Shown piece by piece: positions 1 through 63,435 of a DNA stretch of 64,000 bases (position 1 is the first letter of the stretch; every line of letters starts with the position of its first letter). The DNA comes from Cyanidioschyzon merolae. Its lineage: Eukaryota. The stretch lies in NCBI GenBank assembly GCA_000091205.1, contig AP006492.2; one strand, given 5' to 3'. A program made the position numbers and the translations under genes. The notes beneath the pieces were generated by a model. It was not told where the DNA came from. It was given only the letters and a program-made list of their open reading frames with translations, and ran no database searches.

Positions 1-18
1 CCCCCCATTCCCCCATTC
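1..18. repeat. Two degenerate units of CCCCCCATT (complement AATGGGGGG); telomere-type repeat remnant at the window edge
   Basis: Sequence begins ccccccatt cccccatt, followed by a more degenerate ccccatt. AATGGGGGG is, to my recollection, the telomere repeat of Cyanidioschyzon merolae. Only about 2 units are visible. Confidence 0.3.
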
Positions 19-169
19 GACGCAATGCCCCATTACTGCGGTGTTCTCAGAGCAAAAGCATCTGTCAGAGCGATGTCTACCAATCCAGGTTCGTTCGGGT
101 ATTTTTCCGGCGGTACGATCTGAGCAAATACGCATCTGTCTTATCTACATCCAGCACACCAGTGCCCTT

Positions 170-3100
170 ATGGATCTCCTTCCAGCGCTTTGCTTTTGTT
201 TGTTTCGACAGAGCCTGTTTTACTGACCAGACGCCGAGATTGCCGGATTGATACTTGTTTCGGAAAATCCTTCGTCACGCTGGACAATTTCGGTGATTTT
301 TGTCGCATTTACCTAATCTCGGCTGTACTGATTGTATCTGACTTTCTATCGTGCGCCGTTTACCTACCTTGAGCACCCGTTGTAGCCTCTCTATCGCCGC
401 TGTGGGTGCTCTCCGGAAGCAGGGCTGCTCTGACATACCACTGGGCGCGTTGGAAGGGGCTTGGTTCATGCTACATGGGATCAGGGAGATTTATTTTCTT
501 TGGAGCCTCCAAGCGGATCTTGCAGACGATTTGCATGCGGTAGCGTAAAACGGCGTACTATCTGTTCACCGCGACGGTGTTAGCGCTCAGACGCAGCATG
601 CCTGCTCCTAGTCCCGAAATTAATTGCGTTTTGGATGAGTTGCCCAAGTGTCTCATATCACTCTCCACTGAAAGTCACACGGAGGGCAGGCCGGTAGTCT
701 CGCGGCACGCAGACCTTCCGATTAAATGTAACACTTTGACCATACGCGAAATCATCTTCTTTACGTTTACACTAGGTTGCAATAGTACTTGCTATCCTGT
801 TTGTGCATATTGGTTAATTTTTTTGCATTTTCTCTGTCGTGCGTCCTGGTAACGCATCGCGAAATCTGGCCGTCACGTCACCCAACGTGCGCCTCTCCGA
901 TCAAGAAAAACGCGGTAATGACCTCTTCTGGAGCGACTGCTCTATCGGGGCCACTTGTATTTGCGATCGAATCGTAGCAAAGTATAGTTTTGGCTTCAGT
1001 GGCGTTCCAATCTTAAAGTAACTCTATTCACCAGATTCTCGCCGTTCAAAGCAGAAGCGTCCAATGAGATGTTCTCCCAAAAAATCTGACACTTATGTAG
1101 TATGATGTAGTGGGTTTGGGGTGGCCGGTGCTGCCGGGTGTCAGAATGAAATGAGACATATTGCCTAGCGAAGAGGGTCAGGAAAAGAAGAAGAAGCAAC
1201 ATGGGGGGCCTTACATCGAAGGCCGAAATTGTGACTTCTGTACGACAAGATGGTGGTGGAATCTTATCTTCTCCAACATATCAATGATCCGTACGACTGA
1301 TTGTTGCGAGACGCTATCAGAAACCGTGGCGGATCGTAGGCCGGGTATGTTTGGAGCTTTTCTTTAGGACGTTGGCATTTGGACAGCGACCTGCATCGGG
1401 ACGTAACGCTTATTGCGAAAATGATGTTTCCGGAAAAATTTTTCCAAAAGACTTTCATCAACTACCTGATTGTTTTTAATGGGAAAACATCGGGGATAAG
1501 TGAGCGAGTGCATGCCTTTCTCAAAAATTACGCCAAATTCCTCGTCTTCCGTGCTGAACACAGGGGTGACGCAGACATTTACGAATACAGGGCAAAGAGG
1601 TGCCTTATGAATGTGAGGAACCATAAAATGGCAAACCTCGATTGTTTCATGATACGCGTCGTCTTTGTGCTGTACCCGGGCACATTTCGCGAAGTGATGC
1701 TTGCAATCATCGATGGTATGAAGAACGATCGCCAGCATGGACAGGAGATCAGACTCGTCGACAAGAGGACATCACGCAGGATAATGAATGATGCTTCTGT
1801 AATTCGCGCCACTATTCTAAAACATCGTTCGGTCTTGGGTCATGTCAACCCAAGAGAAAACTCTCGGATATGAGAAACGACGGAGAGAGTTGTTACTCCC
1901 TCATCCTGCCCTGCTTCATGTTTTCGGTCCGAGACCTCGACCGCAGAGCCGACATGGGGCTGAGTGAGGAAAAAATGACGAGTGGGAGAAACGACATTGA
2001 AGTCTTCTCCAGATGCGCTTCAATGTCGGTCAGTTATGCGAGTCCAAGTCACATTTTGTGAGTAACCACTCCATAGTACTTCACGACTTCACGATAGAGA
2101 TTTGTCCAGAGCTCGATGTAATCAACAAATAGGTCTCCGGTGAAGATCGGGACGCCTACGAGAAGAATATCTTCGATTTCAAGCGTCCCGAACCGGCCAA
2201 AAAAAGTTTATTCACTGGAACAATCGATCTCGATGTGGCGCACATATGTGTACACCATCAGCGGTTGAAGGCAGCTCGTCCTATCCCGTCTTCGTTACGG
2301 GCGTTGCCGAAGAACGAACACAGGTTGACGGGCTATGGAACGTATAAGCCCCATGAAAACCACTTTGGCGTCGGCCTTAGTCCCTGGTGCACGAATATCA
2401 TAACCATCGCTGTTCCTAAGCGAAGGGAAGATTGCACTGACTGCACCTTACGTCACAAACATATGCTTCTGCTGAGGTTTTCGAGAGAGAGATACAATCG
2501 AGAATCCGGTATAACGAATGCAAGGAAGAAGATGGTTACGTGGAATGTAGGAATGAAGGATCACCTGGAAGCTTTGAGCGTGGTGACGAGCTGACGAGCG
2601 GACATTCAAGCTTTTCTGAAATTCATGGAAGTTCGTGTTGCTCATTCCGTGGCGCTGTAGGGCGAGTATACAAAGCACCGCTGGGCACGTTTGCGTATGA
2701 ATCTGTGCCGTGGTAAGCATCACGCATTCGCGAGCTTTTTCAATCGATTGAACGCCTTGAAATAGGATCAAGTCAGAGGCTCGTTGTTACATATGGTGTA
2801 GGGAGCTGGGCTCCGAAAAAAAGGGACTCCACCAGCTCCAACGGCAGGAATGGGCAAGGAGTGCGCACTGGGTCTCGCTACGGTACCTGTGGGTGGGTTC
2901 CGAACATCGTATACACACCACGAGTTGGGATGTACTCTTCAGAAGATGGAGATTGAAAAGTGCCCGCGGAGTCGTCATGATATAAAAAAGTAAGGGATAG
3001 CTGACGGGAGAGGAAATGGAAAGGAGGGAAGAAGCTCGTGGACTACTTGCATTAGTAAGTACGACTACCATCGGCAAGAAACGTATGGAGTTCGCGAACC

Positions 3101-3375
3101 GAGTCTTTAACGCTGCAATCAATCTACGGAGATGTGCGGGAATAGACAAAAGACTCCCAGCGGTGACACGAGAGTCCATTGTTGGACAACCTCTTAAACT
3201 GGAACTATATGAGAAACAATGGTGTCCGCAGTAGGTGGCCGGTCGAAAAAGGCGGGAAGGCGTCTGCACGTCAGTTGGCGACTTCTTGTCTAGGGCGCGG
3301 TTGCCGCCACTACTGTACACTGTCGGCAGCAACGTTTTTGTTTCGAAAGATGTTTGTTGTCGTCGGCTGCGGTGG
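170..3375 (+). mobile_element. Fanzor/TnpB-like element, copy A (most degenerate of the three long copies)
   Basis: Collinear DNA similarity to copies B and C over the left end, the ~1 kb non-coding leader, the decayed nuclease ORF and the 3' conserved block (ggcgtctgcacgtcagttgg ... ctagggcgcg ... gccgccactactgtacac). Boundaries are approximate (+/-30 bp), judged by loss of inter-copy similarity. Confidence 0.6.
1199..3330 (+). pseudogene. Fanzor/TnpB-like RuvC nuclease pseudogene (copy A); multiple frameshifts, an internal deletion and an in-frame TAG
   Basis: ATG at 1199 in Kozak-like context (aagaagaagcaacATGG), conserved with copy C. Fragments in three frames match copies B and C: RFNVGQLCESKSHF, TNIITIAVPKR (RuvC-I region), FRTSYTHHELGCTLQ, RMEFANRVFNAAINLRRCAG (RuvC-III). 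In-frame TAG at 2658-2660 where copy B has TGG. Confidence 0.55.
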
Positions 3376-4508: not shown

Positions 4509-5585
4509 TCAAGATGCTTTCTTCGGCGTGCTCTGGAGTGCCTCTATACTGGATTGGAGGTCTTCTTTCTCGTCACTTTCCATGAACGGCAGTATTTGTA
4601 GTACTTCAACGACACCATTCCGACCTAGCACACATGGCAACGACAAGAATACATCCGCCGACTCGAGGCCTCGCAACGAGCCCGCATGCGTCGTTATTGG
4701 CAGCACTTTGCGCCGATCATGCACAATCGTTGTAACGATGCTTCCAACAGCGCTGCCAATGGCCCAGTTGGTGTAGCCTTTCAGCTTAATGACCTCGTAA
4801 GCCGCGGCTACAACTTGCTGATGGACACCTTTCACCAGATCATAGAATGCTGTGGACGCGCTCGCAGCGTCGGTCATGCGCTCGAAGCATGTTCGCAACG
4901 GTACGCCACCAACCGTAATACCACTCCGGTACACGAACGAGGAGTCTCCGTGCTCGCCCAGTACCATGGCCTGGACGGAAGCGGTATCGATGCCCAGCCG
5001 CTGCGCCAGAAGTGTGCGGAAACGCGAAGAGTCCAAATATGTCCCTGAGCCAATCACACGTTCGCGGGGCAAGCCACTCATCTGCCACGCTAGATGTGTC
5101 AGTAGATCAACGGGGTTACTCACAACCAACAGGATTGTGTTCTGCGAATACTGCACCAGGGGCGGAATAATGCCTTTGAACAATGCGGCATTGCGATCCA
5201 TGAGCTCAAGACGACTTTCTCCGGGCCGCTGACGCACACCTGCCGTTATAATACATACTGCCGAATGTGCTGTATCCTCGTAGGACTCGGCAGCCCGGAT
5301 GCGGGTGCTGTAGAACGCACCTCCATGCTGCAAGTCCATAACTTGACCCTTGAGTTTGTCCTTGAGAACGTCCACCAGTACCAGCTCACTACAAATATCT
5401 CGGGTCAAAATATTATAGGCGCAAGCAACGCCAACGTCACCAGCTCCAACCACGGTGATGCGGACGGGGTACGAACGTGCAAGCGCCGCACCCGGCGTGT
5501 CGATCGCAGGCGAGACCTCCCCAAAGAGACTTCCCTGAAGCTCAGCCGCCGCCTCGTCGATCCCTGACGTCGTTCCAAAGAGCAC
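4509..5585 (-). CDS. L-lactate dehydrogenase (LDH/MDH superfamily, LDH-type)
   Basis: 358 aa single ORF with Rossmann motif VVGAGDVG. The segment TAGVRQRPGESRL aligns to LDH Q102...R109. IGSGTYLDSSRFR and VLGEHGDSS are LDH signatures (catalytic His in EHGDS). Stop codon is TGA. Confidence 0.85.
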   Translation of the reverse strand: MLFGTTSGIDEAAAELQGSLFGEVSPAIDTPGAALARSYPVRITVVGAGDVGVACAYNILTRDICSELVLVDVLKDKLKGQVMDLQHGGAFYSTRIRAAESYEDTAHSAVCIITAGVRQRPGESRLELMDRNAALFKGIIPPLVQYSQNTILLVVSNPVDLLTHLAWQMSGLPRERVIGSGTYLDSSRFRTLLAQRLGIDTASVQAMVLGEHGDSSFVYRSGITVGGVPLRTCFERMTDAASASTAFYDLVKGVHQQVVAAAYEVIKLKGYTNWAIGSAVGSIVTTIVHDRRKVLPITTHAGSLRGLESADVFLSLPCVLGRNGVVEVLQILPFMESDEKEDLQSSIEALQSTPKKAS

Positions 5586-7774
5586 AGTTCCACGATTTGC
5601 TTCCTTGCCAGACAGATCCTCGAAAAAGTCCGACTACAGGTTTCAGATCGCCCGAGCTGCGGTGCAGGGTTGTTTCCAGCACTGGTGCCGAGATCGCTAC
5701 AAACCCGTGATCGTTTTGTTCTCCAGCACTATAGGCCTCGCCAAAACTAGGTACAGTGCTCTTTGATAACACAGCTGTCGGATCCACGAAGGTATTGCTT
5801 TAAGTCAGAGGGAACGCTCGAGACTGAGCGCCCCGAATAAATCATGCTATCCGTTGAGGACACAAAGATGCACTTGAGGGCTTTCGCGATCGCCCAGAAG
5901 CGCCTTCCGGAGATTCGATCCAGAGCGATGCGCGTCTCGATGACGAGTCCGCCTCGGGGCGTTTTTTTCTTTTTGATGAAAAAACGTTTGCATTGACAAT
6001 GCATCCCAGAATTTGGAACGCACGATGGCTTCCGGGGATATCTCGATCATAGTGCACCTGTCCTCAAGTCCCATTATCCATACTACCTCTCTGATATATT
6101 GGTCGTTTCGTATGTTCTATCGAGCGCCGAGCCTGTTGTGAGCACCCGCTGTAGCGCTTATACCGCTGAAGCAGGTGCTGCACAGAGACAGAACGGCTTT
6201 GCCATACCACTAAGGGCGTCCGCTCGAGGAATGATTCACCTGAAACGGAATCAGGGCTATTTGTCATTCTGGGAACATGCAAAATGCGCAGACAGACCTA
6301 CTACCTGCGACAGCGCGAAGTGCTGTACTAGGATTCCACTGCGACCAGTGCGAGGCCCAACGCAGCGTCCTGTGCATATTCTCAGGATAAAATGCGTTGT
6401 GAACGAGCTGCGCAGGTCTTGCAGCAGCAGCAGCAGCAGCGGCAGCGGCCACTTTAGAGGCATACCGAGCTCTAGCCCGGTAGACTCGACCGGCTCGCGG
6501 GACCTTCCGCCTCGAACATAAGCTTCCGATAATACGGCGATCTATTTCCCCTTAAACGCTTATCGTAGAGCGGGAAAAAATTTTATATCGTTTCTTGTAA
6601 ATCGTAGGTCACTGTCCTTTTTCCTGTATGGCGCGCTCGATACGTGCATCTCCAAGTATGGCACTTACGAGACACGACGCATCTGTCGCCTTTGAAGAGA
6701 AACGCGACCGTGACGACACGTTTTCTTGATGTTCTAACGGGCAAGCTGTATTTGCGTGGAAGTCGTAACAAAATATAGTTTCCAGTTCGATTGTGTCTCA
6801 ACCCTCAAGTAAACATATTCAATTGATTTCTCGCAGTATATAATAGAAGGGTTCAAAGAGCGTTCTTTTTCACACAAAAAAATGAAAAGAAAAGCTATGA
6901 AAAAGCAAGTTGACGATCCTGGAGGCCCAGTGTCGCCTGCTGCCAGAAATAAAAACAAAAAACAGAGCCGAGTCCAGAAGAACAGGAAAAGAAGAAGAAG
7001 CAAAAGGGGAGGCCCTAAGTCGAAGGCGGCAAGAAAGACGACTGTTCGACGAGATGATGGTGAAAGCCTGTCTTCTTAAACAAATCAAGCATCCTTACAG
7101 GGAAAATTTGCGAGACGCTATCAAAAAACGATTCGATTCGTACTCCATTGGTATTTTCAAGGCGTTGTCAAGACTGATGCATTTGGCGAGGGAGATGTAC
7201 GAAAACGTGGCGCACTTGGAAACGGTCGAGATTCCGGACGATTTTTTCGGTAAGACATTTATTCGACACCTAATGCTTGGCACAGCGGAAACGCGGAGGG
7301 AAAATGTGCTAGTGCATGGCCTTTACGAAAAACATCCCCTCTACAGCTTCAACAGTACTCTGTACAGGGGTGATTCGAATGTTTACGTATAAGGGGCGAC
7401 GAAGTACATCACGAAACTGTGGTTCACGTGATCGTGAAACTCGAACGTTTCATGATACGCGCCGTGTTTGCGCTGTACCCGGGTATCTCTCGCAAAGGAA
7501 TATGGGAGATTATCAACGGCATCAAGAACGATCGCAAGCATGAAGGTGAAGTCGAATTCGTCGACACGAAGGCGTTTAACGACAGCACGAATGATACTTC
7601 TGTAATCCATTCGGTTATACAAGAGCACCGTGCAATCTTGGGGCCGGCGAATCCAACAGACAAGACATCAGAGTTGAAAAAAGATAAGGAAAGATACTAT
7701 CGTCTTATTCTGCGCTATTTCATGTTTCTCGACCGAGAACTCGAGCGAAATGCGGAGATGAAGCTGAGTGAAGA

Positions 7775-7781
7775 AAAAAAG
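7775..7781 (+). other. Candidate -1 programmed ribosomal frameshift site: slippery heptamer A_AAA_AAG at the junction of upstream and downstream reading frames of the copy-B nuclease gene
   Basis: Frame-0 codons are gaa|aaa|aag (7773-7781). The downstream conserved frame (frame 2) opens after TGA at 7769-7771 and codes EDWERRKAVLMGKRFNVVPM, conserved with copy C (EELGRRKAAIVGKRF). The upstream frame ends at TAA 7809-7811. Copies A and C change frame by -1 at the same place. Confidence 0.35.
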
Positions 7782-8128
7782 AAGATTGGGAGAGACGGAA
7801 GGCTGTCCTAATGGGTAAGCGCTTCAACGTGGTTCCAATGTGCAGCATCAAGTCACATTTCGTGAATATCGATTCGGACGTGTTTTACGGCATCATGAAG
7901 GAGATCAGTCCAGTGTTCACTGTTATCAGGGATGACTTCACCGGTGAAAACCGGGCGACGTACTTGAAGAACATCTTCAATTTCAAACGGCTCAAAGTGA
8001 GAAGCCAAAAGGTATTCACTGCGTTGATCGAGACCGATGGAGTAACCTTGTATGTACACTATCGGCGCTTGAAAGTGGACCGTCCGATTGTGCCTTTCGC
8101 TTCGCCCTCTGCGAAGCATTAAAAAATC

Positions 8129-8428
8129 AAAGAAGCGGATCCTGCGACACAGGAGGTGCAGGATGACGACTTTGTCGCTGACGCGGTGAAGGATGAAAAA
8201 GAGAAAGAGGCGGAACCTGTGATGCAGAAAGTGCAGGATAACGACCGTGTCGTTGGCGCGGTGAAGGATGAAGGTCAGAAGGAGGCGGATCCTGCCGAAC
8301 AGAATGTGCAGGATAACGACTTAATGGTTGACGCGACGAGGCATCAAGGAAAGAAAGAGGCGGATCCTGCCATACAGGAAGTGCAGGATAAAGACATTGT
8401 GGTTGGCGCGGATCCTGGGAACACGAAT
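8129..8428 (+). repeat. In-frame 75-bp tandem repeat, 4 units, inside the copy-B nuclease ORF just upstream of RuvC-I
   Basis: Units encode KEADPATQEVQDDDFVADAVKDEKE / KEAEPVMQKVQDNDRVVGAVKDEGQ / KEADPAEQNVQDNDLMVDATRHQGK / KEADPAIQEVQDKDIVVGADPGNTN. Copy C has a single unit (YEKEADPAIQKLQDSDFVVGLNPWNTN). Confidence 0.8.
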
Positions 8429-10585
8429 ATCATCACCATCGCAGCACCGAAGCGTGCGGAAGATGGCATGGACGGTAATTTACGCCAGAAAGACATGCGT
8501 CTGCTGAGGTTCTCGAGAGCGAGATACCATCGAGAATCCGTTGTAGTGAATGCAAGGATGATAATCGTTACGTGGAATGCAGGAATAAAGCATCACCTGG
8601 AAGCTTTGAGCGAGGCGACGAGCCGCGGAGCGGTCTATGAAGCTTTTCGGAAATTCATGGAATTTCGTGTTGCCCATTGGGATGCGCTGTGGGAGGAGTA
8701 TAAAAAGCCCCGGTGGGCTCGTCTGCGAATGAATCTATACGGTGTGAAGCAGCGGGCGTTTGCGAATTTTTTCAATCAGTTGAGCGCCTTTGAGGGGGAT
8801 GACCGTCAGAGGCTCGTAGTAGCGTATGGAGCAGGGCGCTGGAAGAACAGAAAAGGAACTACGCCAGCTCCAGCGACGAAGCTGTACAAGGAGTGCGCCC
8901 GGCGTCTCGTTACGATACCTGTATATGAGTTCCGGACGTCCTATACATACCAGGAACTGGGCTGCACGCTTCAGAGGGTAGAGATGGAAAAGTGCCAGAA
9001 GAGCGCTGAGGAAATTGCAAAAGTACGGACCGCTGGCGGAGGAGCAACTGTAAAGGAAGGCGAAAGTTCAAGGGTTACTCGTATTGGTGAGTACAGCTCC
9101 CAACGGCACGAAATGTATGGAGTTCGTGAACCGAGATTTTAATGCCGCTATCAATATACGGAGATGTGCGGTGCTGGAGAAAAGACCTCCAGACTGGACA
9201 CAAGAGGATTTTATTGGACAACCTCTCAAAGTCGAACTATATGAGAAAAAATGGAAGCAGACGTTGGTGGCCGGTCCAAAAAAACGGGGAGGCGTCTGCA
9301 CGTCAGTTGGAGACCCCTTGCCTAGGGCGCGTTCGCCACTACTGTACACGGCCGGGGGCAACGTTTGTCTTTTGAGAGGCGTTCGGTGCGGGCGCGTCAC
9401 GTCGCTTATTCAGAACGTATTTGCGAAGAGTACCTAGAGTATATGTGGTAATAGTTGATGCTTTTCGTGAAGATATTGCTGCCATGGCTGTAACAGGACT
9501 GATGTGACAGAAAATGTGGAAAATGGGCAACTCGAGTTCTTCTGTATTCGATACATCATCCGCTGCCTTGTCGTTTATCTATCTTCCGAGGGTCCTGTGT
9601 CCATTTATTAGCAACGGATCCGTTTACCAATTTGTTTGCAATGATATAGAACAAGATCAATTGTTTAGAATCGATACTGGCCGCTTCTAGAATGCCTCCA
9701 GCTGTGCTCAAGGTGCTGTGGTAATGCTTACATAGCGTACAGCTCGTCTCAGGATGTGACTGCCTGGCATGATGTGCCTCTGGACCGAGTAACGGTAACT
9801 GCGCATCTACGTCTTCACGGCTTACCACCACTTCGTTCTCGTTTTTTTCTAGTGTACAAGACATAAACATAATCCGGAAATCAGCACAACACTTCAGACG
9901 GTTTTATGGACGTAGCCTACGAGCAACGGTAGGCAACAGTGGTGAATATATCGAGACGATGCCTCGACCGCCAGAACAAGCTATAAGCACTTTCAATGTT
10001 AGAGCTATAAGTGCGCTGTGAGGCTGGCGGCCCTGCTTCCATTCGTGCCAAGCGGAGCCGGAGCCCGTAGGCAGGCGTCACGAATATTAGCTTTTCCTCA
10101 AGAGGAATCGGATTTTGGTGAAATTTGCGGTTGTACGGATCGAGTCAAATTTGCTCCAGAACCTCTCCTCAGGACTAGAATGTGCTCAAGTACAACGAAA
10201 CTCAAAAAACAGTTCCAGACGCTCTACTGCAGACATACTCGCTACATGCAACTCGGAAACCGTATTCCGACTACAAAGAGAAGAAAGGGTACCAAGATAC
10301 CGCCATTACCACCAAGGCTATCATCGGGGGCAAGCTCATAGGCATAGGTAATCATTCCTTTACGTTCCAAAAGCAAATTCTGGTCCATTCTTTCTGTTCA
10401 TCAGATCTCTGAATGTCAGCCCCCGAAGAGGACCTCAGATGACACTTCGCGCACAAATATCCACATTAACGCATTCGTTCATTCGTACTCTCGGGTCTTG
10501 TGAACATGAGTGGAATATTGTCGCAACAGAGGATCAGCATAGACGTGATCTAGACTGTGGGCAAATTAACAGTTGAAACGTTCGC

Positions 10586-13500
10586 TCACGCAGTCGGTGG
10601 AGCTGAAGATGTCGCTGATTCCGAGGCGCTCGCAGACGTCGACACAGAAGCTGAAACTGAAGCACTCGCTGATGCACTCGTTGATGCACTCGCAGACACC
10701 GTCGCAGAAGCTGTCGCAGAGACTGTTGCAGACACCGTCGCAGAGGGTGCCGCTGTCACAGCCACGGGACTCGGAGTCGGTGTTGAACTAATCACCACAC
10801 ACTGGTTGTTGATGCACTCCTCGTCAGCGCGGCAGCAACGCACCTTGCTCACAAGGTTATCCGAAGGGATCAGGTACGTCCCGCACTGCTTCGTAGGGTC
10901 CTTGCACACACAGAATGACGGCAGCAGCACCTGTTGTTGCTGCTGTTGCTGCAGTTGCTGCTGCTGCTGCTGGTTGTTGTTGTTGCTGAACGGGTTGTAC
11001 GTGCAGTTCTGCGTCTCGGCGTTGCAGCACTCGGGGCCGCAAGCAATATAGCTCGAGTTCGATACGTTGCTAGTGGTGCCGCTCAGCGAGTTCGACACAT
11101 ACCCGTAGGTCTGGCACACGTACTCGGTCATCGGCTGGAAGCACTCGTTGCTGAGCCCCAGGCAGCAACCAGCCTCCAGACACTGCTGTGGCGAGTAGCT
11201 CGTGCGCTGCGTCCCGTGCTGCTCTCCGTACAGGAGCGTGTTCAGCAGACGCACAAACTGGTTGTTGTTGATGTTATTGTTCAGCTGCTGGTTCTGATTC
11301 ACCGCGTTCGTGCACGGCTGGCGCTCAAACTCGCCCACCGCGCACGTCTTCTCGGGCTGGAAGCAGTACGGGTTCGACTCAAAGTCGCTCTGCTGCTTGC
11401 CGTTCTGCACCCACTGGTTCTGCGCCTGCGAGTCGTAGCAGCAGCCCTGGGCATAGCACGTAAACTGGTTGATACCCGCGTTGCCGCACGGCTGGCGCTG
11501 CGCTCCCGGTGACGGGCAGACGGGTACTGGTGCCTGCACCTCCTGCAGCGCTACAGAGGCCTGCGGTGCATGGTTGATGTCGTAGTAGCACCAGGGTGCC
11601 AGGATGCCGTTTGCCGTTGGCTGCCAGCAGCATCCCGGTATCGCAGTGCACTCGTCGGGATAGATGTAGCTCCAGCCGCAGGGGACGCGCTGCGTCACTG
11701 GAACAGCGCTGCACGCCGCTGAGACGCTCTTCAGGGTGCACGCGTTCGTCTGGGAGTTAAAGCAGCACCCGACTTGCTCGCAAGCGTCCTGGTTTGTGTA
11801 CTGGCCCGGAGAACCGCAGATTTCACTCGTGCAAACTGGTGTTGGCGTTGCACTCGGTGTCGGGGTTATAATAGCAAGTGTCGCACCAGAGGGTAGAATT
11901 GTAGAAAGCTGGTCGGTGAAAGTTTGAAGCACACTTTGCAGTTCACTGGCGAGGGATGTGTCTCCTGAGATCTTAATCACATAGGTCACAACACTGCCGC
12001 CCGAAGTGCGCACCAATGCTCGTTCCAGACGAAGATTGCTCTTGTCTAATGTGGTGGCGAGGCGCCTTGATGTGCCCGAACCGAAGACCGTGTCGCAGTT
12101 ATCAGTCACGCTGACATTCACTACCTGGCCCGTGAAGCGAGCCTCGAGATCGTTCTGCAAATCCGTCGCCACGGCCAAACAAAGAGAAAGATTCTGAACG
12201 GATATCGCAATCGAGGTGGAAATCGTCGTCGGCACGATTGTTGGTGACGTTGTTGCAGTTGGAGTCATCGTCGGCGTCATCGTCACTGTCGTTGGAGACT
12301 CTGTTACAGTAATCGTTGGCGATGATGTAATTGTCGGAGTCATCGTCGCAGTCGGTGTCGGTGTAGGTGTAGGTGTAGGTGTCGGTGTCGGTGTCAGTGT
12401 AGGTGTCGGTGTCAGTGTCGCAGTCGGTGTCGCAGTCGGTGTCGCAGTCGGTGTCGGTGTCGGTGTCGGTGTCGCAGTCGGTGTCGGTGTCGGTGTAGGT
12501 GTCAGCGTGGGTGTCGGGGTCGCAGTAGCAGTTGGCGTAATCGTTGGTGTCAGAGTTGGCGTTGATGTTGGCGTAGGCGTAGGGGTAGGCGTAAAGAACG
12601 TTTCACTCAGTGCGAAAACATCATTGAGATAGCCAGGAATGCTAGTGTTTGAGTATCCAAATCCGCCAAACATGACCGGATCAGTCCCACTTGTGTTCCA
12701 GAAAACTGACCCAGTTCGACCGCCAGGCGAAACACTAGGGCTGGTCTTATTCAAAAATCCATATACGGAAAGTGCAAATCCATTTTGGCTGCCATTGATC
12801 CACGCCCACTGACCCAGTGTCATATCAAATACCCACAAATCGTTCAAATCACCGGGGCTCTCACGAGTATTCCCATATCCTTCACCACCAAAAAGTAGCA
12901 GATTACCCAAAGAATCCACGAAACTCACGCCTGAGTCTCTTGCACCAGGGTAACTGGTTGGGGCGAAAGCACCGAGACTTCCATAAGATCCTGGATTGTT
13001 AATAGTGGTATTCCCTGCGATAAAAATCCATACAGATTGACTTATGTTGTAGACCCAGAGATCATTCAACTTCCCTTGTCCTGGTGCTGTGCTGTCGCCG
13101 TAGCCAAGACCACCGAACATCCAGAGATTTCCTTCAAAATCTGTCCAGGTATTCGCGACGATGCGCGCACCTGGTGCACTCGAATTGTTCGCCACGCCAG
13201 GTGCGCTATAGTTGCCAGGCTGGTTAGCAAGTTGTGATCCGCCTCTGTATGCCCATTGCAGTGTAGTGGGATTAAATGACCACAGATCGGAGACAGAATC
13301 CCCAAGATTATTTTCACCACCAAACAACCAAAAAGTACCGTCAGCACCCAACCAGAATGATGCACTGCCTCGGGACCCAGGATTGTAGGAAGGACCAAAG
13401 ACGCCCTCCGCTCCATATATCGTGCCGGCATTTACCGTATCATTCCCGCTGACCCAAGTCCAGACTCTGCTTTCTGTATCGTACATCCACATGTCGTTCA

Positions 13501-14011
13501 TGGGGCCAAAGTTTGCATTCCGATCATAACCGAGGCCACCAAACAACCAGAAATGCTGCTCGTCCATCTGCCAGTACGCGCTTCGATAACGACTGCCAGG
13601 TGTATTGGCTGGGCTGCCTGTGCCGACTGTGCCGTACACTCCTGGTTGGTCGGCTTCTGAGGAACCTCCTATCCACGTCCATTCATGTGAGGTCAAGTTG
13701 AAGGTCCATAGATCATTAAAGTAGCTCAGATATGGGTTTCCACCCCCAACCCCGCCAAACAAGTATACCAAGCTCGAACTTCCGACCCAGGCTGCAGAAT
13801 CGTAACGGCCACCTGGAACACTATCTGCTGAAGTCTGGTTCAGCGTTCCATAATTACCAGGATTATCTCTACCCGTCTCTCCACCTATCCAGGTCCAGCT
13901 AACCGTACTCACAGGCGACAACGCAGCTACAAGCGACACGGAAAACGTGGCCGCCAACAATAGACAAACAGCAACAACCAGGCCACGTACCAGAGAGCGA
14001 GCTCGAAACAT
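10586..14011 (-). CDS. Secreted multidomain protein: signal peptide, Kelch/galactose-oxidase-like beta-propeller repeats, Thr-Pro-rich mucin-like linker, 3-4 trefoil (P-type)-like Cys domains, polyQ, and a Ser/Ala/Val-rich tail
   Basis: 1141 aa single ORF. The N-terminus [30 protein letters not shown] is signal-peptide-like. Recurrent ...YLFGG / WLFGG ... NDLW(T/S/V)F blades indicate Kelch repeats. (TPTPTP...)n lies at about 12240-12600. Trefoil-like modules show R-x-x-C-G-x9-C-x4-C-C-[YFW] ... P(W/Y)C(F/Y): [23 protein letters not shown]...APWCYY and [22 protein letters not shown]...NPYCFQP. Confidence 0.7.
12240..12600. repeat. Low-complexity (ACN-CCN)n coding repeat (Thr-Pro linker); mirrored on the plus strand as the spurious (GV)n ORF 12216-12632
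   Basis: gtcggtgtcggtgtaggtgt... periodicity; encodes [11 protein letters not shown]... on the minus strand. Confidence 0.8.
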
Positions 14012-17047: not shown

Positions 17048-18061
17048 CTATTCCCGAGTGATGTACTTCTGAAGAATCGGGAAGAATATGTTGCGGAACC
17101 TGCCACGCTTTTCACGTAAGAGGTTGCTATCGGCGACACATCCCGGGAAAATCGCCACAGGGGTCACCCCGTCGCGGCCGTATCGATCACTGAGCGCCTT
17201 CATTGTCAATACGTTGGCGGCTTTGGCGTCTTTGTAGGCTTTTGTGGGCTCAAACGGACTATTCTCTTCCATGCCAGTCGTCCGCGGTCCGAGTCTTGCG
17301 TCGACACCAGACAAATCACCAAGACGAGCCTGCGGGGGGATCTTTCCCGGCAGCGAATTCGGCGAGTGGGTCTGAGTCGTCAAGAACACAATGCGCCCGC
17401 GCAATATTTTCAGCTTCGGCAACAGCTCCCGACATAGAAGCAAATGGCTCAGATGGCAAACCTGTATGGCCTTCTCGATGCCGTCCACCATGAAACGCGG
17501 TTTCTTGTCCCGCGGATGCCATATTGCGGCATTGCAGATAAGGGCATCCAGGTGATCGACGCGCGCCACACTCGATAGCTCTCTCATAGACTTCAACACA
17601 GAGGCGAAATCAGCCAGATCACAATGCAGCACTGTATAGGCGTCCTTTGGGAGGTTCACGCTGTTTGCTGTGCGTTCCGCCTGACCAATGTCACGACATG
17701 CCATGACGATGTGCCAATTGCCCTTGTTGATCAGAGCGCGAGCTGCATACAGACCGACCCCAGAGGACGCGCCAGTGATCACGGCGATCTGCGACTGTTT
17801 CGGGCCCATACGAAGATGCAGCATACGATGCCGGCGCGTTACAGGCGATCGCTGCACCATCAAGGGTAGCGGATGCTGGAAATGGTGACGATGTACAGCT
17901 GTGAAGCACCTGTCACGTGCGGTACGCAGCGGAAACGGTGCTCGAGTTGCAGCGGGTGCGCCAACTATGTGTTTTTCCTGGCACAGCGGAAAACAAACCA
18001 ATACGTCTTGCAGTTTTTTGGGATAGATTTTCTTTGGTGGTAAAGCTGCCAACTTCATCAC
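17048..18061 (-). CDS. Light-dependent protochlorophyllide oxidoreductase (LPOR)-like short-chain dehydrogenase with N-terminal transit-peptide-like extension
   Basis: 337 aa: IAVITGASSGVGL (NADPH Rossmann motif), NAAIW, YKDAK (SDR catalytic Y-x-x-x-K). The C-terminus GVTPVAIFPGCVADSNLLREKRGRFRNIFFPILQKYITRE closely matches the LPOR C-terminus (...YPGCIATTGLFREHIPLFR.LFPPFQKYITKG). Related RDH/WWOX-type SDRs are not excluded. Confidence 0.7.
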   Translation of the reverse strand: MMKLAALPPKKIYPKKLQDVLVCFPLCQEKHIVGAPAATRAPFPLRTARDRCFTAVHRHHFQHPLPLMVQRSPVTRRHRMLHLRMGPKQSQIAVITGASSGVGLYAARALINKGNWHIVMACRDIGQAERTANSVNLPKDAYTVLHCDLADFASVLKSMRELSSVARVDHLDALICNAAIWHPRDKKPRFMVDGIEKAIQVCHLSHLLLCRELLPKLKILRGRIVFLTTQTHSPNSLPGKIPPQARLGDLSGVDARLGPRTTGMEENSPFEPTKAYKDAKAANVLTMKALSDRYGRDGVTPVAIFPGCVADSNLLREKRGRFRNIFFPILQKYITRE

Positions 18062-18363
18062 CGACTAAAGTCGTTCGCGTACGCATACATTTCCAGGGAG
18101 AAATCTCTTTTTCGTTGCTGCACGAGTGATCGCCCATCAATTGCGCAGAGTCCGACTTGTAACTCCCGTAGACTGTCTAGCGTTGAGCGCATCGAGCACA
18201 AGCGCTCAATGTCTTCCACAGAGACTAGGCGAAACTCGCGGTTTGCCGTGCAATAATCTCGTCAGTACTGGTAACTCAGTGCTCCGCATTGTTGCGCTCA
18301 GATAGCGCAAAGATCGTAGTGGCACGATGCTGCACCCCGGGGTACGGCGCCGCGGACACGCAA

Positions 18364-18530
18364 GGGAATTCCCTCCGGCGGGATGATTTCGGTGCATACG
18401 CATCTGGTAAGGCGATGGTTCGAACAGCAGAGCCATTAGGGAATTCCCTCCGGCGGGATGATATCGGTGCATACGCATCTGGTAAGGCGATGGTTCGAAC
18501 ACCAGAGCCATTAGGGAATTCCTTCCGGCG
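18364..18530. repeat. 75-bp tandem repeat (about 2.3 units) abutting the 5' end of element copy C; the unit shares its first ~17 nt and a ggttcga(a)cag motif with the element left terminus
   Basis: Units start at 18364 and 18439 (gggaattccctccggcgggatgat(t/a)tcggtgcatacgcatctggtaaggcgatggttcgaaca(g/c)cagagccatta). A third partial unit gggaattccttccggcg runs directly into the element (ttatgcttttttggttcgacagaacgtttctactgacc). Confidence 0.8.
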
Positions 18531-21500
18531 TTATGCTTTTTTGGTTCGACAGAACGTTTCTACTGACCATGCATCCCATGTTTCCGGGTCGATATTGGCT
18601 TTCGGGAAAGCGTCCATCATGTTGGACTACTTCTGCACGTTACATCGCTTTTGCTTACTCTCTGCTGTACTGGTCGTCTCATTTTTTCTATTGTGCGCCG
18701 GTTGCCTGCCATGAGCACCCGCCGTAGCATCTCTATCGCTGGTGCGGATGCGCTACGAAAACAGAACAGCTTTGGCATACCACTGAGCGCGTCGGAAGAG
18801 GCATTGTACAAGCGATACGGAATCAGGGCTATGTATATTTTTGGGAGCCTCCAATCTGGACAGGCTGACCTTCTGCCTGTGGTAGCGGGAAGCGGTATTG
18901 TAGGATTCCTCCGCAACCAAGGTGATGCCCAGACCCAGTATACGCGCTCCTAGTGCCAAAATCAAATGCGTTTCGGACGAGGTGCTCAGGTGCGTCACAT
19001 CACCCACCACCGCAGAGTCACACGGCGTACAAGCCGGTAGAGTCTCGCGGCTTGCAGACCTCGCGCCTAAAAGGCAACTGTTTGACCAAACGCAAAAACA
19101 TCCTGCTTTGAACGTTTATTGTAGATGGCAATAGAACTTGCTATTCCGTTTGTGGATATTGGTTAGTTTTCGGCATTTTCTATTTCGTGCGCCCTGGCAA
19201 CGCATCTCGGAATCTGGCCGTCACTTCACACGACGTTCTTCTCGCCGATGATGCGAAACGCGGTAATGACCTCTTTTGGAGCTATCGCTCTATCGGGGCC
19301 AGTTGTATTTGCGCTCGAATCGTAGAGAAGGATAGTTTCGGCTTCAATTGTGTTTCATACTTCATGTAAGGATATTTAAGTGATTTCAGCCGTTCAAAGC
19401 AGAAGCGTCCAATGTGTTCTCCCCCAAAAAACAAAAGGTAGACTCATGTAATTGGAAGTAGAGGGTTTTGGATGGCCGGTGTTGCCCGAAGTTAGAAGAA
19501 AACGAGGAACAGTGCCTCGCAAAGAGAAACAGGACAGGAAGAAGAAGCAAATGGGGGAGGCCTTTTGTCGATGGCTGCAAGAGTGACGTCTCTACGATGA
19601 GATGGTGGTGGAATCCTGTCTTCTTCGACGTATAAAGGATCCGTACGAGGGAGAGTTGCGAGACGCTATGAGAAACCGTGTCGACTTGTACTCCATGAGT
19701 ATTTCCAAAGCGTCGTCACGACTGATGCATTTGGCGAGGGAGATGTACGAAAACGTGGCGCACTTGGGAACGGCCGAGATTCCGGCGATTTTTTCGATAA
19801 GACCTTTATTCGACACCTGATGCTTGCCACAGCGGAAACGCGGAGGGAAAATGTGCTAGTCCATGGCCTTAACGAAAAACATCCCTTTTACAGGTTCGAG
19901 GCTACTCGATACAATGCTGACCGGGATATTTACATGTACGGAGCGATGAAGTATATCACGAACCTGAAGAATCTTTTGGCAGTGAACCTCGAACGTTTCA
20001 TGATACGCACCGTGTCTGCACACTGCCCGGGCATCTCTCGCAAAGGAGTATGGGCGATTATCAATGGCATCACGAACGATCGTAAGCGTGAAGATGAGGT
20101 CGAATTTGTCAGGGAGAAGGCGTCATGCAGGAGTACGAATGGACTTCTGTAATCCGTGCGGCTATACAAGAGCACCGCGCAGTCTTGGGGTTGGCGAATC
20201 CAACAGACAAGATGTCAGACTTGAAAAAGATAAGGAAAGATACTATCGCCTCATCCTGCACTATTTCGTGTTTTTAGACCGTGAACTCGAACGCAAGGCA
20301 GCGATGAAGCTGAGTGGGGAAAAAATGAAGAGTTGGGGAGACGGAAGGCGGCCATAGTAGGGAAGCGCTTCAACGTGGTTCCAATGCGCAACATCAAGTC
20401 ACAATTTGTCACCATCGACTCCAGAACCCTTCATGGCATCATGAGAGAGATCAGTCCCGAGTTCAATGTTAACAGGGCGGAGGTGACCCGTGAAACCCGC
20501 GAGACGCACTGGAAGAATCCCTTCGATTTCAAACGTCACAAAGTCAGCAAACAAAAGAAATTCACCGGGATGATCGAAACCGATGGATTAGCCATGTGTG
20601 TACACTGTCGGCGGTTGAAGGCAAATCGTCAAGTTCCGTCTTCGATATTGCCCGTTACGAAGCATGAATATGAGAAGGAGGCGGATCCTGCGATACAGAA
20701 ACTGCAGGATAGCGACTTTGTCGTCGGCCTTAACCCCTGGAACACAAACATTATAACCATCGCTGTACTAAAGCGTCCGGAAGATTGCACCGACGGCAAC
20801 TTACGTCAGAAATATATGCGTCTTCTGAGGTTCTCGAGAGCAATATACAATGGAGAATCCGGTATGATCAATGCAAGGAAGAAAATCGAGACTTGGACTT
20901 CAGGAATGAAGGATCAAATGGAAGCTTTGAGCGAGGTGACGAGCCGCGGAGCGGACTTTGAAGCTTTTCTGAAATTCATGGAAGTTCGCATTGCGCATTG
21001 GGATGCGCTGTAGGAGGAGTATACAAAGCCTCGGTGGGCTCGTTTGCGTGTGAACTTGTACTGCGGGAAGCAGCGTGCATTCGCGAACTTTTTGAATGAA
21101 TTGAGTGCCTTGAAGAAGGATGAAAGTCAGAGGCTCGTAGTATCGTATGGGGCAGGACGCTGGGCGTCGAAGAAAGGGACTACACGTGCTCCAACCACAA
21201 GACCGTACAGGGAGTGTGCACGACGCTTCGTTACGATACCGATAGATGAGCTCCGAACATCGTATACTCACCATGAACTGGGACGTACACCTCAAAAAGT
21301 CGAGATGGAAAAGTGTCAGCAGAGCCCTGAGGATATAAAAAAGTACGGACCGCTGACGGAGGAGCAAATGGAAAGGAAGACGAAAGTTCGTGGACTCCTT
21401 GCATTAGTAAGTACAACCAATAATGGCAAGGAACGTATGGGGTTTGTGAACCGAGACTTTAACGCCGCCATCAATATCAGGAGATGCCCTGTGATGGAAA

Positions 21501-21718
21501 AAAAAAGACCCCCAGAGTCGACACGAGAGAGAATTCTGTTGGACAACCACCCAAAGTGGAACTATATGAGAAAAAGCTGGAATAAGTCGTACGTGGCCGG
21601 TCCAAAAAAACTGGGAGGCGTCTGCACCTCAGTTCCAAACGTTCTGACTAGGGCGCGTTTGCCGCCACTGCTGTACACCGCTGGCGACGTTCGACTTTAG
21701 AACAGCGTTGATGGTGCT
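18515..21718 (+). mobile_element. Fanzor/TnpB-like element, copy C
   Basis: Collinear with A and B across leader, ORF and 3' block. The right end (...gcgacgttcgactttagaacagcgttgatggtgctgcg) is shared with fragment E up to ...gttgatg(g/a)tgct and ends within about 4-8 bp of the WD40 gene ATG (21722). Confidence 0.65.
19551..21700 (+). pseudogene. Fanzor/TnpB-like RuvC nuclease pseudogene (copy C)
   Basis: ATG at 19551 (caaATGGGGGAGG). In-frame TGA at codon 12. Frameshifts near 19815 and 20100, plus the family-wide -1 junction at about 20320. In-frame TAG at 21011-21013 (copy B has TGG). The C-terminal part is continuous: IDELRTSYTHHELG...GKERMGFVNRDFNAAINIRRCPVM (RuvC-III). Confidence 0.6.
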
Positions 21719-33229: not shown

Positions 33230-33660
33230 TTCATTTCCAAAAAAAAAATAAGGAATGAGCCGCAGTGCGCACTTCAGTAGGCCGAGATGGAGCGCCGGCA
33301 GCCAAGCGCATCGGTAATAGAGAAGCACGCAGAGCTGACAGAGCCCCAAATGGTACTAATGGCACGAGTTCGAGGAATCGGTGTACTGATGAGTTCCATT
33401 AGAGGCAATGCACGCATGGAATTCATAAACCGAGGCGTCAACGCCGCCACCAACATCAGGAGATGTTCAGCGCTCCAGACGAGACCTGCGGAGCATTCGC
33501 GAGCGAACGTTATCGTGATGCTTCTCAGGCTCCAAGTTTGCATGGAGAAACTGTAACCGATAGCAGGGAGCCGGTAAAAAAGGCTGAAAGGCGTCTGGGC
33601 ATACCTATTAATTTCCATTAGATGCTCGTGAAACGTTGTCGCTCCATCGGGCATATTCCA
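33230..33660 (+). mobile_element. Short 3'-end derivative of the Fanzor-like element (fragment D)
   Basis: ORF 33287-33556 encodes ...TEPQMVLMARVRGIGVLMSSIRGNARMEFINRGVNAATNIRRC, a decayed RuvC-III NAAINI region, followed by a diverged ggcgtctg block. It shares a subfamily-specific sequence and the same 5' breakpoint (...cacttcag(t/a)aggccgagatgg) with fragment E. Confidence 0.5.
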
Positions 33661-36076: not shown

Positions 36077-36392
36077 GTTCCAGTCCGTGCGGTAAAATCG
36101 ATGCGGTAAGCAACATATTATGAGACACGAGTGGACAGTAATGGATCGATTGCCTTGCATGCCGTGCGGTAAGATTGATGCGGTAAGTATCCAATTATGG
36201 GACAAGAATGGTCAATAATCGATCGATCATGATGCATGTCGTGCGGTAAGCTTGATGCGGTAAGTATCCTATTATGAGACACTAGTGAACGACCATCCAT
36301 AGATTGCCTTGCATGTCGTGCGGTAGGAACGATGTGGTTAGCATCATATTATGAGACAATCATGATCAATAATCGATCGATCACCTCGCACG
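36077..36392. repeat. Tandem repeat, about 80-bp subunits x4 (alternating two subunit types, effectively ~160 bp x2), in the 5' flank of the FkbM methyltransferase gene
   Basis: Recurrent gtgcggtaag(a/c)ttgatgcggtaag(t/c)a...attatgagaca... with the alternating blocks ggatcgattgccttgcatg and gtcaataatcgatcgatca. It generates the spurious overlapping ORFs 35943-36300. Confidence 0.8.
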
Positions 36393-62742: not shown

Positions 62743-63435
62743 TCATCGCGAGTCGTCCGTTTCGGTACCCCATACACGATAGGGTCGCTTCTGCAGCGCG
62801 GAATTGTAGTATCGTTCGTCGAGTGTGACCTCGTCCGCCAACCAGGTCGGCCGCTCAAACGCCGTCTCGGGGGTTGGCAGCTCGATCTCCGCGAGGATAA
62901 GAGGAGCATTATCACCCAAGAACTCATCGATCTCCCAAACAAGGCCAGCTTCCTTTGCCGGTATTCGATAGCGCACTTTTTCGATAAGTGGCTGTACACA
63001 GAGTGTGTTCAACAACTCTCGAGCGTCCTCGACTGGGATCGGGTACTCGTACTCGGCCCGCGTGCAACCGTGGGTGCGTCCCTTGATCGTCAAGAAGCCG
63101 CTCATGCCAGCAACACGGACGCGTACGGTGCGGTCGGGTTCACTGCACAGGTAGCCTTGCGCGAGATGTGTGCCCTGCGAAGTGCACAACAGCCGACGAA
63201 CTTGGTCAGCGTGCACCAGAAACTTGCGCTCAGTCTCGCGGTTCGCTGCGCGGTTCACCCCACCGTGTTGCATTCGCGGAGCACTGGATCCTAAAAGCAC
63301 CGAGATTTTCGAATCTAGCTTTAGAGTGTGAACTCGAGGAGGAGGAGACCACCTGAACGTGGTGCGCCCAAGAAACGGCCGTGCAGCAGGCACGAAGAGC
63401 ATCATCAACGTCGTTCGAAAGTCGAACGACGTCAA
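62743..63435 (-). CDS. CYTH-domain protein (CyaB/thiamine-triphosphatase-like triphosphate tunnel metalloenzyme)
   Basis: ETERKFLV (the CYTH hallmark E-x-E-x-K near the N-terminus) ... RVRVAG...FLTIKG ... EYEYPIPVEDARELL ... LVWEIDEF ... LILAEIELP. The likely start is Met at 63273 (MQHGGV...), giving about 176 aa; the upstream 54 in-frame codons are uncertain. Confidence 0.7.
   Translation of the reverse strand: MTSFDFRTTLMMLFVPAARPFLGRTTFRWSPPPRVHTLKLDSKISVLLGSSAPRMQHGGVNRAANRETERKFLVHADQVRRLLCTSQGTHLAQGYLCSEPDRTVRVRVAGMSGFLTIKGRTHGCTRAEYEYPIPVEDARELLNTLCVQPLIEKVRYRIPAKEAGLVWEIDEFLGDNAPLILAEIELPTPETAFERPTWLADEVTLDERYYNSALQKRPYRVWGTETDDSR

Follow-up and report, generated by a model that had tools for sequence, protein, structure and literature searches.

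The 64,000-nucleotide stretch of Cyanidioschyzon merolae DNA analysed here (contig AP006492.2; "the window" throughout) encodes, at 10586-14011 on the minus strand, a protein of 1141 amino acids (aa) in which a Kelch propeller and a series of trefoil-type cysteine modules are joined by a Thr/Pro-rich stalk. The gene is very probably a member of the subtelomeric K+T family of the Cyanidiales, whose products combine Kelch, a Thr/Pro/Ala linker and Trefoil and have also been called "trefoil-factor-like". The best explanation as a whole, at a probability of roughly 0.75, is that this K+T gene specifies an adhesin-like glycoprotein of the wall or cell surface and that its family diversifies by exchanging cassettes. 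The family is already known and was first mapped in this same genome, and the gene is not new as a discovery; what is added is the module-level anatomy of the protein, the loss of its lectin residues, an orphan middle segment and a directly observed cassette exchange.

From N to C terminus, the protein consists of a signal-like N-terminus, a six-blade Kelch propeller, a Thr/Pro stalk, a segment of about 120 aa, six cysteine modules (here M0 to M5, with an Asn/Gln-rich run between M4 and M5) and a Ser/Ala/Thr-rich tail. In the list below the cysteine modules were scanned one at a time against the trefoil family PF00088, for which the gathering cutoff is 21 bits.

10586..14011 (-): complete single-exon coding sequence of the Kelch-stalk-trefoil (K+T) protein, 1141 codons plus stop (from the open reading frame (ORF) and Pfam)
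13922..14011 (-): signal-peptide-like N-terminus, aa 1-30, with a basic n-region, a hydrophobic core and small residues at its end
12596..13906 (-): six-blade Kelch beta-propeller (K module), aa 36-472, from Pfam, blade motifs and homology
12215..12595 (-): Thr/Pro-rich stalk, aa 473-599, composed of 48% T, 28% P and 6% A
11846..12214 (-): orphan middle segment, aa 600-722, with neither a cysteine pattern nor low complexity
11738..11833 (-): M0, aa 727-758, a shortened trefoil-type module with a short loop 1, C-x4-C-x11-C-x4-CC-x7-C; PF00088 9.4e-4, 19.4 bits, just under the cutoff
11588..11713 (-): M1, aa 767-808, a canonical trefoil, C-x10-C-x9-C-x5-CC-x12-C; PF00088 5.7e-12, 45.8 bits, profile positions 1-42 of 43
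11363..11518 (-): M2, aa 832-883, a trefoil with a long third loop, C-x9-C-x9-C-x4-CC-x24-C; PF00088 1.6e-7, 31.5 bits
11141..11344 (-): M3, aa 890-957, a degenerate trefoil in which an Asn/Gln-rich insert of 43 residues separates Cys2 from Cys3 and the PWC motif is lost; PF00088 E 5.9, not significant alone
11003..11116 (-): M4, aa 966-1003, a five-Cys module with no Pfam match, not recognisable as a trefoil
10931..10993 (-): Asn/Gln run between M4 and M5, aa 1007-1027, 62% Q, with a period-9 repeat at 10931-10988
10799..10912 (-): M5, aa 1034-1071, a seven-Cys module, CxC-x6-C-x15-CC-x5-C-x4-C, with no Pfam match
10589..10783 (-): Ser/Ala/Thr/Val-rich C-terminal tail, aa 1077-1141, with period-12 repeats at 10657-10744

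The ATG at which the ORF starts is the first possible start codon past the upstream stop, and there are no internal stops. A sequence-only reading made earlier had placed the ORF exactly here, and the Kelch propeller, Thr-Pro stalk, trefoil modules, polyglutamine (polyQ) run and N-terminal signal that it described are all supported by Pfam, PDB sequence matches, composition and hydropathy; a Pfam scan, one of the checks it had suggested, puts both the Kelch families and Trefoil PF00088 above their cutoffs (the latter at 2.2e-12 over the whole protein, in 3 stretches). The segment at aa 600-722, the two non-trefoil cysteine modules, the 65-aa tail and the chromosome-end position were not mentioned there. 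The protein has 17 N-x-S/T sequons in its 1141 aa, and its first 610 residues include a single cysteine, located in the signal segment.

Assignment to the K+T family follows from domain content, linker composition, chromosome-end location, homology to named members and published descriptions of the family. All five family features are found together in this gene: a signal with an N-terminal Kelch region, a Thr/Pro/Ala linker, C-terminal PF00088, a subtelomeric location and homology to named members. Cho 2023 (PMC9812998) described Kelch joined to trefoil (K+T) or to Hint (K+H) through a Thr/Pro/Ala-rich linker as the most prevalent subtelomeric duplication of the Cyanidiales, each species having 12-24 copies in the forms K, T, H, K+T and K+H, with an average linker composition of 36% T, 19% P and 13% A, and one trefoil-only, non-subtelomeric outlier, CDCA10G3079. 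In C. merolae, 15 trefoil-factor (TFF)-like genes have been counted, most of them expressed in the cell-walled diploid phase; their origin was called unclear, and convergence with vertebrate TFFs for acid protection was proposed (Plant Cell 2026, PMC13353863). A 2025 transcriptome study found the architecture of a P-type trefoil plus about 500 aa of Kelch in C. merolae to be regulated under nickel (PMC12112623). The sequence-only reading had thought this architecture unusual for an alga; it is instead the hallmark of a subtelomeric family published for the same genome (PMC1955436, PMC9812998, PMC12112623). Named Cyanidiales K+T genes, such as C. merolae CMR001C and the Cyanidium caldarium set, resemble the window gene in signal peptide, Kelch, Thr/Pro/Ala linker and trefoil(s), and in a telomere-near position among genes of L-lactate dehydrogenase (LDH) and protochlorophyllide oxidoreductase (POR) type, and nothing categorical differs. 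No description of the middle segment of about 120 aa, the six-module resolution, the N/Q insert or the polyQ run was found in the K+T literature; among the matches in the protein collection searched there was no other K+T protein sequence for direct comparison, and no K+T paralogue was found elsewhere in the 64-kb window.

The gene, whose identifier is probably CMJ003C or CMJ004C, is 10.6 kb away from the left telomere of C. merolae 10D chromosome 10. The window begins, at 1-17 (+), with CCCCCCATT CCCCCATT, roughly two reverse-complemented units of the telomere repeat AATGGGGGG, of which no more than about 2.5 units were sequenced at any C. merolae chromosome end (PMC1955436). A single 9-mer match to this repeat is not significant alone (0.21 expected per window), and the match here stands at base 1; it is read as telomeric because of that position together with the assignment to chromosome 10. 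The window also encodes RPN12 (BAM80162.1) and BAM80166.1, both exact matches to C. merolae 10D proteins.

The propeller is recognised by Pfam in the whole protein (PF24681 2.1e-26, 93 bits against a cutoff of 50; PF24981 1.2e-20; Kelch_4, Kelch_3, Kelch_6 and Kelch_1 all above their cutoffs) and again when the K module is scanned alone (PF24681 9e-28, PF24981 4.8e-23, with Kelch_1, Kelch_3, Kelch_4 and Kelch_6 above cutoff). Six blade-start motifs of the form W[TAI][WYF]xxG lie at aa 39, 111, 184, 253, 328 and 402. The K module is 55% identical over 472 aa to Cyanidiococcus CCYA03G1141 and collinear with it up to a shared boundary, GYLNDVFAL(S/T)E, that precedes the linker, and the N-terminus is likewise collinear with that of the Cyanidiococcus K+H proteins. 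The latter, the "Hog" proteins CCYA03G1141 and F1559_000026, have a homologous signal peptide and propeller (50-55% identity) and then a Thr/Pro linker, but carry a C-terminal autoprocessing Hint domain (PF01079) in place of the trefoil array; this Hint domain is present in relatives (P0003, P0008 and P0009) and gave no match in the window's K+T protein. The only 19-residue Kyte-Doolittle average above 1.6 in the protein is N-terminal, with a strongly hydrophobic stretch at aa 1-37. Besides the Cyanidiales, the named relatives of the propeller among the best 120 matches, in a database made up mostly of prokaryotic metagenomes, are all prokaryotic at 35-42% identity; they include Acidobacteria, Bacteroidota with type IX secretion system (T9SS) sorting domains, Aminicenantes, Deltaproteobacteria and Lokiarchaeota. 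The propeller may have been transferred from prokaryotes.

On sequence, the M0-M5 array is made up of four trefoil-derived modules and two conserved cysteine modules of another type. M1 carries the motifs RVPCGW, GCCW and APWCYY and matches, among PDB sequences, TFF3 (6v1c, 3.4e-5) along with TFF1, pancreatic spasmolytic polypeptide (PSP) and maltase-glucoamylase (MGAM). The cysteines of M0 are kept in the trefoil-only Cyanidium caldarium protein CDCA10G3079 (P0127) and in two proteins from Logan runs, P0147 and P0200. M3 is a trefoil by descent, since in P0147 and P0200, at about 30% identity, the module that aligns with it Cys for Cys is a canonical trefoil ending VPWCYY. M4 is conserved in the Cyanidium protein and partly in P0200, while M5 is highly conserved in Cyanidium and recognisable in P0200. 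The order M0-M3 recurs in both P0147 and P0200, the latter having M4- and M5-like modules as well; a profile search brought up further trefoil-only proteins of about 380-400 aa, including Cyanidium CDCA20G4839, and found no six-module array in named organisms outside the Cyanidiophyceae. CDCA10G3079 itself has the same M0-M5 order with every cysteine shared, 58-65% identity, a signal peptide and a Ser/Thr/Ala stalk; it differs in having no propeller, no middle segment and no polyQ, in an M3 insert 28 residues shorter, in ending directly after M5 and in its genomic neighbourhood.

All 33 of the cysteines in M0-M5 are conserved in that Cyanidium protein, and the ratio of non-synonymous to synonymous substitution rates (dN/dS) is 0.25 for M0-M2 and 0.38 for M3-M5 against Cyanidium, and 0.14 and 0.29, respectively, against a 91%-identical metagenome relative (L002). 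By these comparisons the six-module array has been inherited as a unit and is kept by purifying selection. Both the M3 insert, which is 43 residues long here against 15 in Cyanidium and 9 in the remote relatives, and the polyQ run at aa 1007-1027, absent from the Cyanidium protein, are lineage-specific expansions. The earlier suggestion that N/Q insertions in the third and fourth modules reflect ongoing divergence needs correcting on this point: the third loop of M2 has 24 residues both here and in Cyanidium, and only the M3 insert is lineage-specific. In a 389-aa called protein from JGI (P0128), everything from the second half of M3 to the tail is present at 87% identity and is preceded by a ribosomal L39-type N-terminus, a C2 domain and a Gly-rich stretch; it is either a product of shuffling or a gene-call or assembly artefact.

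Of the residues of TFF3, Asp20 (Asn in TFF1 and TFF2) and Trp47 are the only ones in contact with GlcNAc-alpha-1,4-Gal, and mucin binding is lost when either is mutated (PMC7221086). The equivalent residues here, those before Cys2 and before Cys6, are I/A in M0, P/W in M1, P/Y in M2 and P/E in M3; M3 of P0147 and P0200 keeps D/W and N/W. The vertebrate lectin pair is thus intact in no module, and any glycan binding by the array would be a matter of analogy rather than of a conserved site. The TFF-like carbohydrate binding put forward in the sequence-only reading does not hold up, since no module keeps both of the TFF3 sugar-contact residues. With vertebrate TFF1-3 and the P-type domains of GH31 glucosidases and ZP proteins, M1 shares the six-Cys PF00088 pattern, R-x-x-C-G, GCC[WFY] and PWC[FY]; further common features are secretion, predicted for the protein here, and an association with Thr/Pro-rich sequence. 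The vertebrate TFFs are, however, small secreted peptides of one or two trefoils, whereas the protein here is a multidomain one of 1141 aa without an intact Asp/Asn plus Trp pair.

Outside the Cyanidiophyceae, TFFs have been stated to occur in vertebrates only (PMC13353863). An exhaustive search linked the array to multi-trefoil cnidarian proteins (Clytia and Oculina, one of them at 1e-27) and to a GH31 of the fungus Piromyces, and in a profile search the array matched a lizard TFF at 1.3e-27. The full Pfam profile match of M1 (5.7e-12), taken with these cnidarian, lizard and fungal matches, points to common descent of the array's P-type domains and animal trefoils over convergence, with the caution that short Cys-rich domains call for; that descent would be either ancient or by transfer.

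The linker is where the parts of these proteins are exchanged, as one pair shows. In one metagenome contig (L007), the last Kelch blade runs on into stalk, middle segment and M1 just as in the window, at 94% DNA identity. In another (L008, 4620-5891; JGI Ga0080006_1201739), the stalk, middle segment and array follow a signal peptide of their own, MKPSLFIICFILCSVFPSLVRA, with no propeller; this gene is 96% identical to the window in DNA from window position 12508 onward and 98% identical in protein, and the point of divergence falls inside the Thr-Pro repeat. The stalk is encoded largely by a hexanucleotide tandem repeat (12351-12522, period 6, 28.7 copies). This pair and the K+H relatives, which share the GYLNDVFAL(S/T)E boundary, together reveal three cassettes (propeller; stalk, middle segment and trefoil; Hint) recombining at the repeat-encoded linker. 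At the protein level, linkers that promote divergence had been proposed by Cho 2023 (PMC9812998). A third contig, L002 (1717-3213; JGI Ga0504776_005757), is syntenic with the window on both sides, with flanks 89% and 91% identical; it is without blades 1-5, stalk and middle segment, and a single blade, of 67.5% DNA identity, is joined directly to M0. Its frame has no Met and has lost one M5 Cys, and from 3896, downstream, there is a different Kelch gene. Probably L002 represents decay or rearrangement of a copy, or else chimeric assembly.

At the other end of the protein, a Kyte-Doolittle heuristic found no C-terminal signal of glycosylphosphatidylinositol (GPI) or transmembrane type, the last 20 residues averaging -0.1, and no internal transmembrane helix, the highest 19-residue value outside aa 1-40 being 1.59. 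From these values, the single N-terminal hydrophobic segment and the 17 sequons, we infer that the protein is secreted and not membrane-anchored. Its plan resembles that of the fungal subtelomeric adhesins (FLO/EPA/ALS), which are multigene families whose products have a ligand-binding head at the N terminus and a long Ser/Thr(/Pro) repeat stalk, the repeat DNA driving length variation and recombination. The resemblance is a functional analogy only, as the domains are unrelated and the K+T protein has no GPI signal.

The mechanism put forward, tentatively and at somewhat less than even odds, is that of an adhesin-like glycoprotein in the wall or on the surface of cells in the walled phase, with every one of its steps conditional. 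The N-terminal signal would send the protein into the secretory pathway. O-glycosylation would turn the Thr/Pro stalk, and probably the Ser/Ala/Thr tail too, into an extended rod; among the subtelomeric genes there is one for a protein O-mannosyltransferase (PMC1955436). The six-blade propeller would be displayed as a non-enzymatic, ligand-binding head. The six disulfide-rich C-terminal modules, which would be protease- and acid-resistant and have no membrane anchor, would bind non-covalently to the glycan matrix of the wall or surface and retain the protein there, for the most part in the walled diploid phase. The family itself diversifies by whole-module exchange at its repeat-encoded linker, as shown for one pair. 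That the protein is secreted to the surface or matrix is plausible and agrees with the diploid, cell-walled phase in which the family is reported to be expressed (PMC13353863).

Several points weigh against this picture, the first being the loss of the sugar-contact pair described above. The exact 1141-aa protein is absent from the protein collection searched, by exact look-up. So is any C. merolae Kelch-domain protein, though flanking 10D proteins are recorded with NCBI accessions, which suggests that the deposited protein set lacks the subtelomeric K, T and H genes; this looks like incomplete annotation of the chromosome ends and not like biology. The AlphaFold2 (AF2) model of aa 722-1076, from a 7-sequence alignment, is poor, with a predicted local distance difference test (pLDDT) score of 48; Foldseek with this model returned trefoil structures only, none at E <= 0.001 (1pos at 6.5e-3; target TM-scores of 0.56-0.72 for TFF1 and TFF3), which lends weak support at most to a three-loop trefoil fold with its disulfides C1-C5, C2-C4 and C3-C6. 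Finally, C. merolae 10D as usually cultured is a wall-less haploid, and anchoring in a wall would apply only in the other phase.

An alternative that is partly compatible with the adhesin-like model, and that we hold unlikely as the main role, is an acid-barrier coat, in which the array would crosslink a glycan layer against pH 0.5-3 in the manner of the gastric TFFs and by convergence with them, as hypothesised in PMC13353863. In its favour, the alga is acidophilic, expression of the TFF-like genes falls mainly in the diploid phase (PMC13353863), the presence of several modules in each protein would confer multivalency as in TFF2 or TFF dimers (PMC7221086), and family members are induced under nickel stress (PMC12112623). 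A coat of this kind would nevertheless have to work with the TFF sugar-contact pair intact in none of its modules; the strong similarity to animal P-type domains indicates common descent and not convergence, such domains being not vertebrate-only (Clytia, Oculina, Piromyces GH31); and the propeller would be left without a role.

The cassette exchanges also bear on the idea of a variable recognition family, that is, contingency-type surface proteins for recognition between cells, between mating types or of microbes, with the propeller as the variable head and subtelomeric recombination as the source of diversity. The family is subtelomeric and multi-copy (PMC9812998, PMC1955436), modules are swapped in L002, L007 and L008, the last blade of L002 has 67.5% DNA identity where its flanks have 89-91%, and members are biased to the haploid or the diploid phase (PMC13353863). 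There is no sign of positive selection, however, the one comparable blade giving a dN/dS of 0.36, and the Cyanidium copies are more than 80% identical, homogenised and not diversified (PMC9812998). Quite a low probability is given to diversity in recognition as the family's purpose, and the adhesin-like wall or surface glycoprotein is preferred.

The middle segment between stalk and M0 gave no match in a Pfam scan, and no homologue of it appeared either in a word-indexed search or in an exhaustive HMMER search of 1.84 billion representative proteins, in which all 99 matches were located on the trefoil part. The segment is real: two independent metagenome contigs carry it at 97-98% identity. 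These are near-identical copies only, and the substitutions in them (1 synonymous to 4 non-synonymous, and 1 to 2) are too few for dN/dS. A single-sequence model (pLDDT 58.5) has the order beta-alpha-beta, a disordered loop of about 35 aa, and beta-alpha-beta, from which a ferredoxin-like fold is predicted. At the start of modelled strand 3 lies G672-S673-V-V. The SEA domains of mucins are ferredoxin-like alpha/beta sandwiches with a G|SVVV self-cleavage site at a tight beta2-beta3 hairpin, and the motif and topology of the middle segment recall theirs, but the tight hairpin needed for cleavage is replaced here by a long loop. The SEA profile gave no match to the segment, and its structure matches were generic, with none to SEA. 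It is very doubtful that stalk, middle segment and trefoils form a true mucin-type cassette, with an O-glycosylated rod, a SEA-like self-cleaving module (G672|S673VV) and P-type domains homologous to the animal ones, attached to a propeller that is maybe prokaryotic. If that were true, it would mean an ancient eukaryotic origin of the mucin/trefoil toolkit, or its transfer between lineages.

A secreted enzyme whose propeller would be catalytic, as either a radical copper oxidase or a sugar mutarotase of NanM type, and whose trefoils would direct it to glycans, is highly improbable. The Pfam name "Galactose oxidase, central domain", the JGI label "N-acetylneuraminic acid mutarotase" on bacterial homologues and the occurrence of trefoil domains on GH31 glycosidases all lean that way. 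The galactose and glyoxal oxidases, which are radical copper oxidases, have a seven-blade propeller and a Tyr-Cys cross-linked cofactor. The propeller here has six blades, not seven, and there is no cysteine in aa 17-610 of the protein; no Tyr-Cys cofactor is therefore possible in it, and identity as a galactose or glyoxal oxidase is excluded. Of the earlier description of the propeller as "galactose-oxidase-type", only the Pfam family name survives. Identity as a NanM/YjhT mutarotase was rejected as well, the TIGR03547 model for these enzymes scoring 29 bits against a cutoff of 256 and PDB YjhT (2uvk) matching at E 0.36. Just as remote is a decaying subtelomeric duplicate with no function of its own: the low-complexity expansions (N/Q insert, polyQ, repeat tail), the related L002 that has lost propeller, Met and one M5 Cys, and the absence of the exact protein from the collection searched would suit it, but it has to contend with an intact 3.4-kb ORF that has a start and a signal sequence, with purifying selection on a Cys array in which all cysteines are kept, with near-identical intact copies in independent metagenomes and with family members detected as protein in the sister genus (PMC13353863).

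Two genes near the K+T gene belong to the usual company of C. merolae chromosome ends.

4509..5585 (-): L-lactate dehydrogenase gene ("L"); Ldh_1_N 9.6e-43, Ldh_1_C 1.8e-26
17048..18061 (-): short-chain dehydrogenase gene, upstream of the K+T gene and syntenic in L002; adh_short 4.2e-20

The first is probably CMJ002C, one of five LDH genes near chromosome ends that are more than 98% identical (PMC6606799), which by its name is the second gene on chromosome 10. The second is probably the subtelomeric "P" gene, its assignment to protochlorophyllide oxidoreductase being inferred. Nozaki 2007 (PMC1955436) listed trefoil factor (T), protochlorophyllide oxidoreductase (P), L-lactate dehydrogenase (L) and hedgehog protein (H) as the recurrent genes of C. 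merolae chromosome ends; the order in the window is telomere, L, the K+T gene and then the probable P.

An element of about 3.2 kb is present in three direct copies, 72-78% identical (156-3320, 6087-9383 and 18499-21709), which bracket the LDH gene and the K+T plus dehydrogenase genes; partial inverted copies lie at 63398-63835 and 33243-33487, and a 94%-identical copy adjoins the T-only gene in L008. Its broken ORFs contain motifs that by eye resemble TnpB/Fanzor RuvC (GADPGNTNIITI, YEFRTSYTYQ, NRDFHAAINV), an identity for which searches of Pfam, NCBIfam and PDB sequences gave no support. Within the element are 75-bp tandem repeats (8129-8411, 3.8 copies; 18363-18530, 2.2 copies) that encode repeats of about 25 aa in an ORF at 8156-9142 (+), itself without a Pfam match. 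Elsewhere in the window, an intergenic 77-bp tandem repeat (36085-36383, 3.9 copies, 75% matches) adjoins an FkbM-type methyltransferase gene, and a 1235-aa ORF at 53880-57587 (-) has no Pfam match at E <= 1e-5.

The K+T gene belongs to the most expanded chromosome-end family of the most streamlined free-living photosynthetic eukaryotes, a family that is phase-specific in the newly found sexual cycle and has a domain which is elsewhere typical of mucosal proteins in animals. For the genetically tractable C. merolae, the range of testable hypotheses is reduced by three results: the six-module array is constrained, its sugar-contact residues are lost, and the propeller is optional to it.

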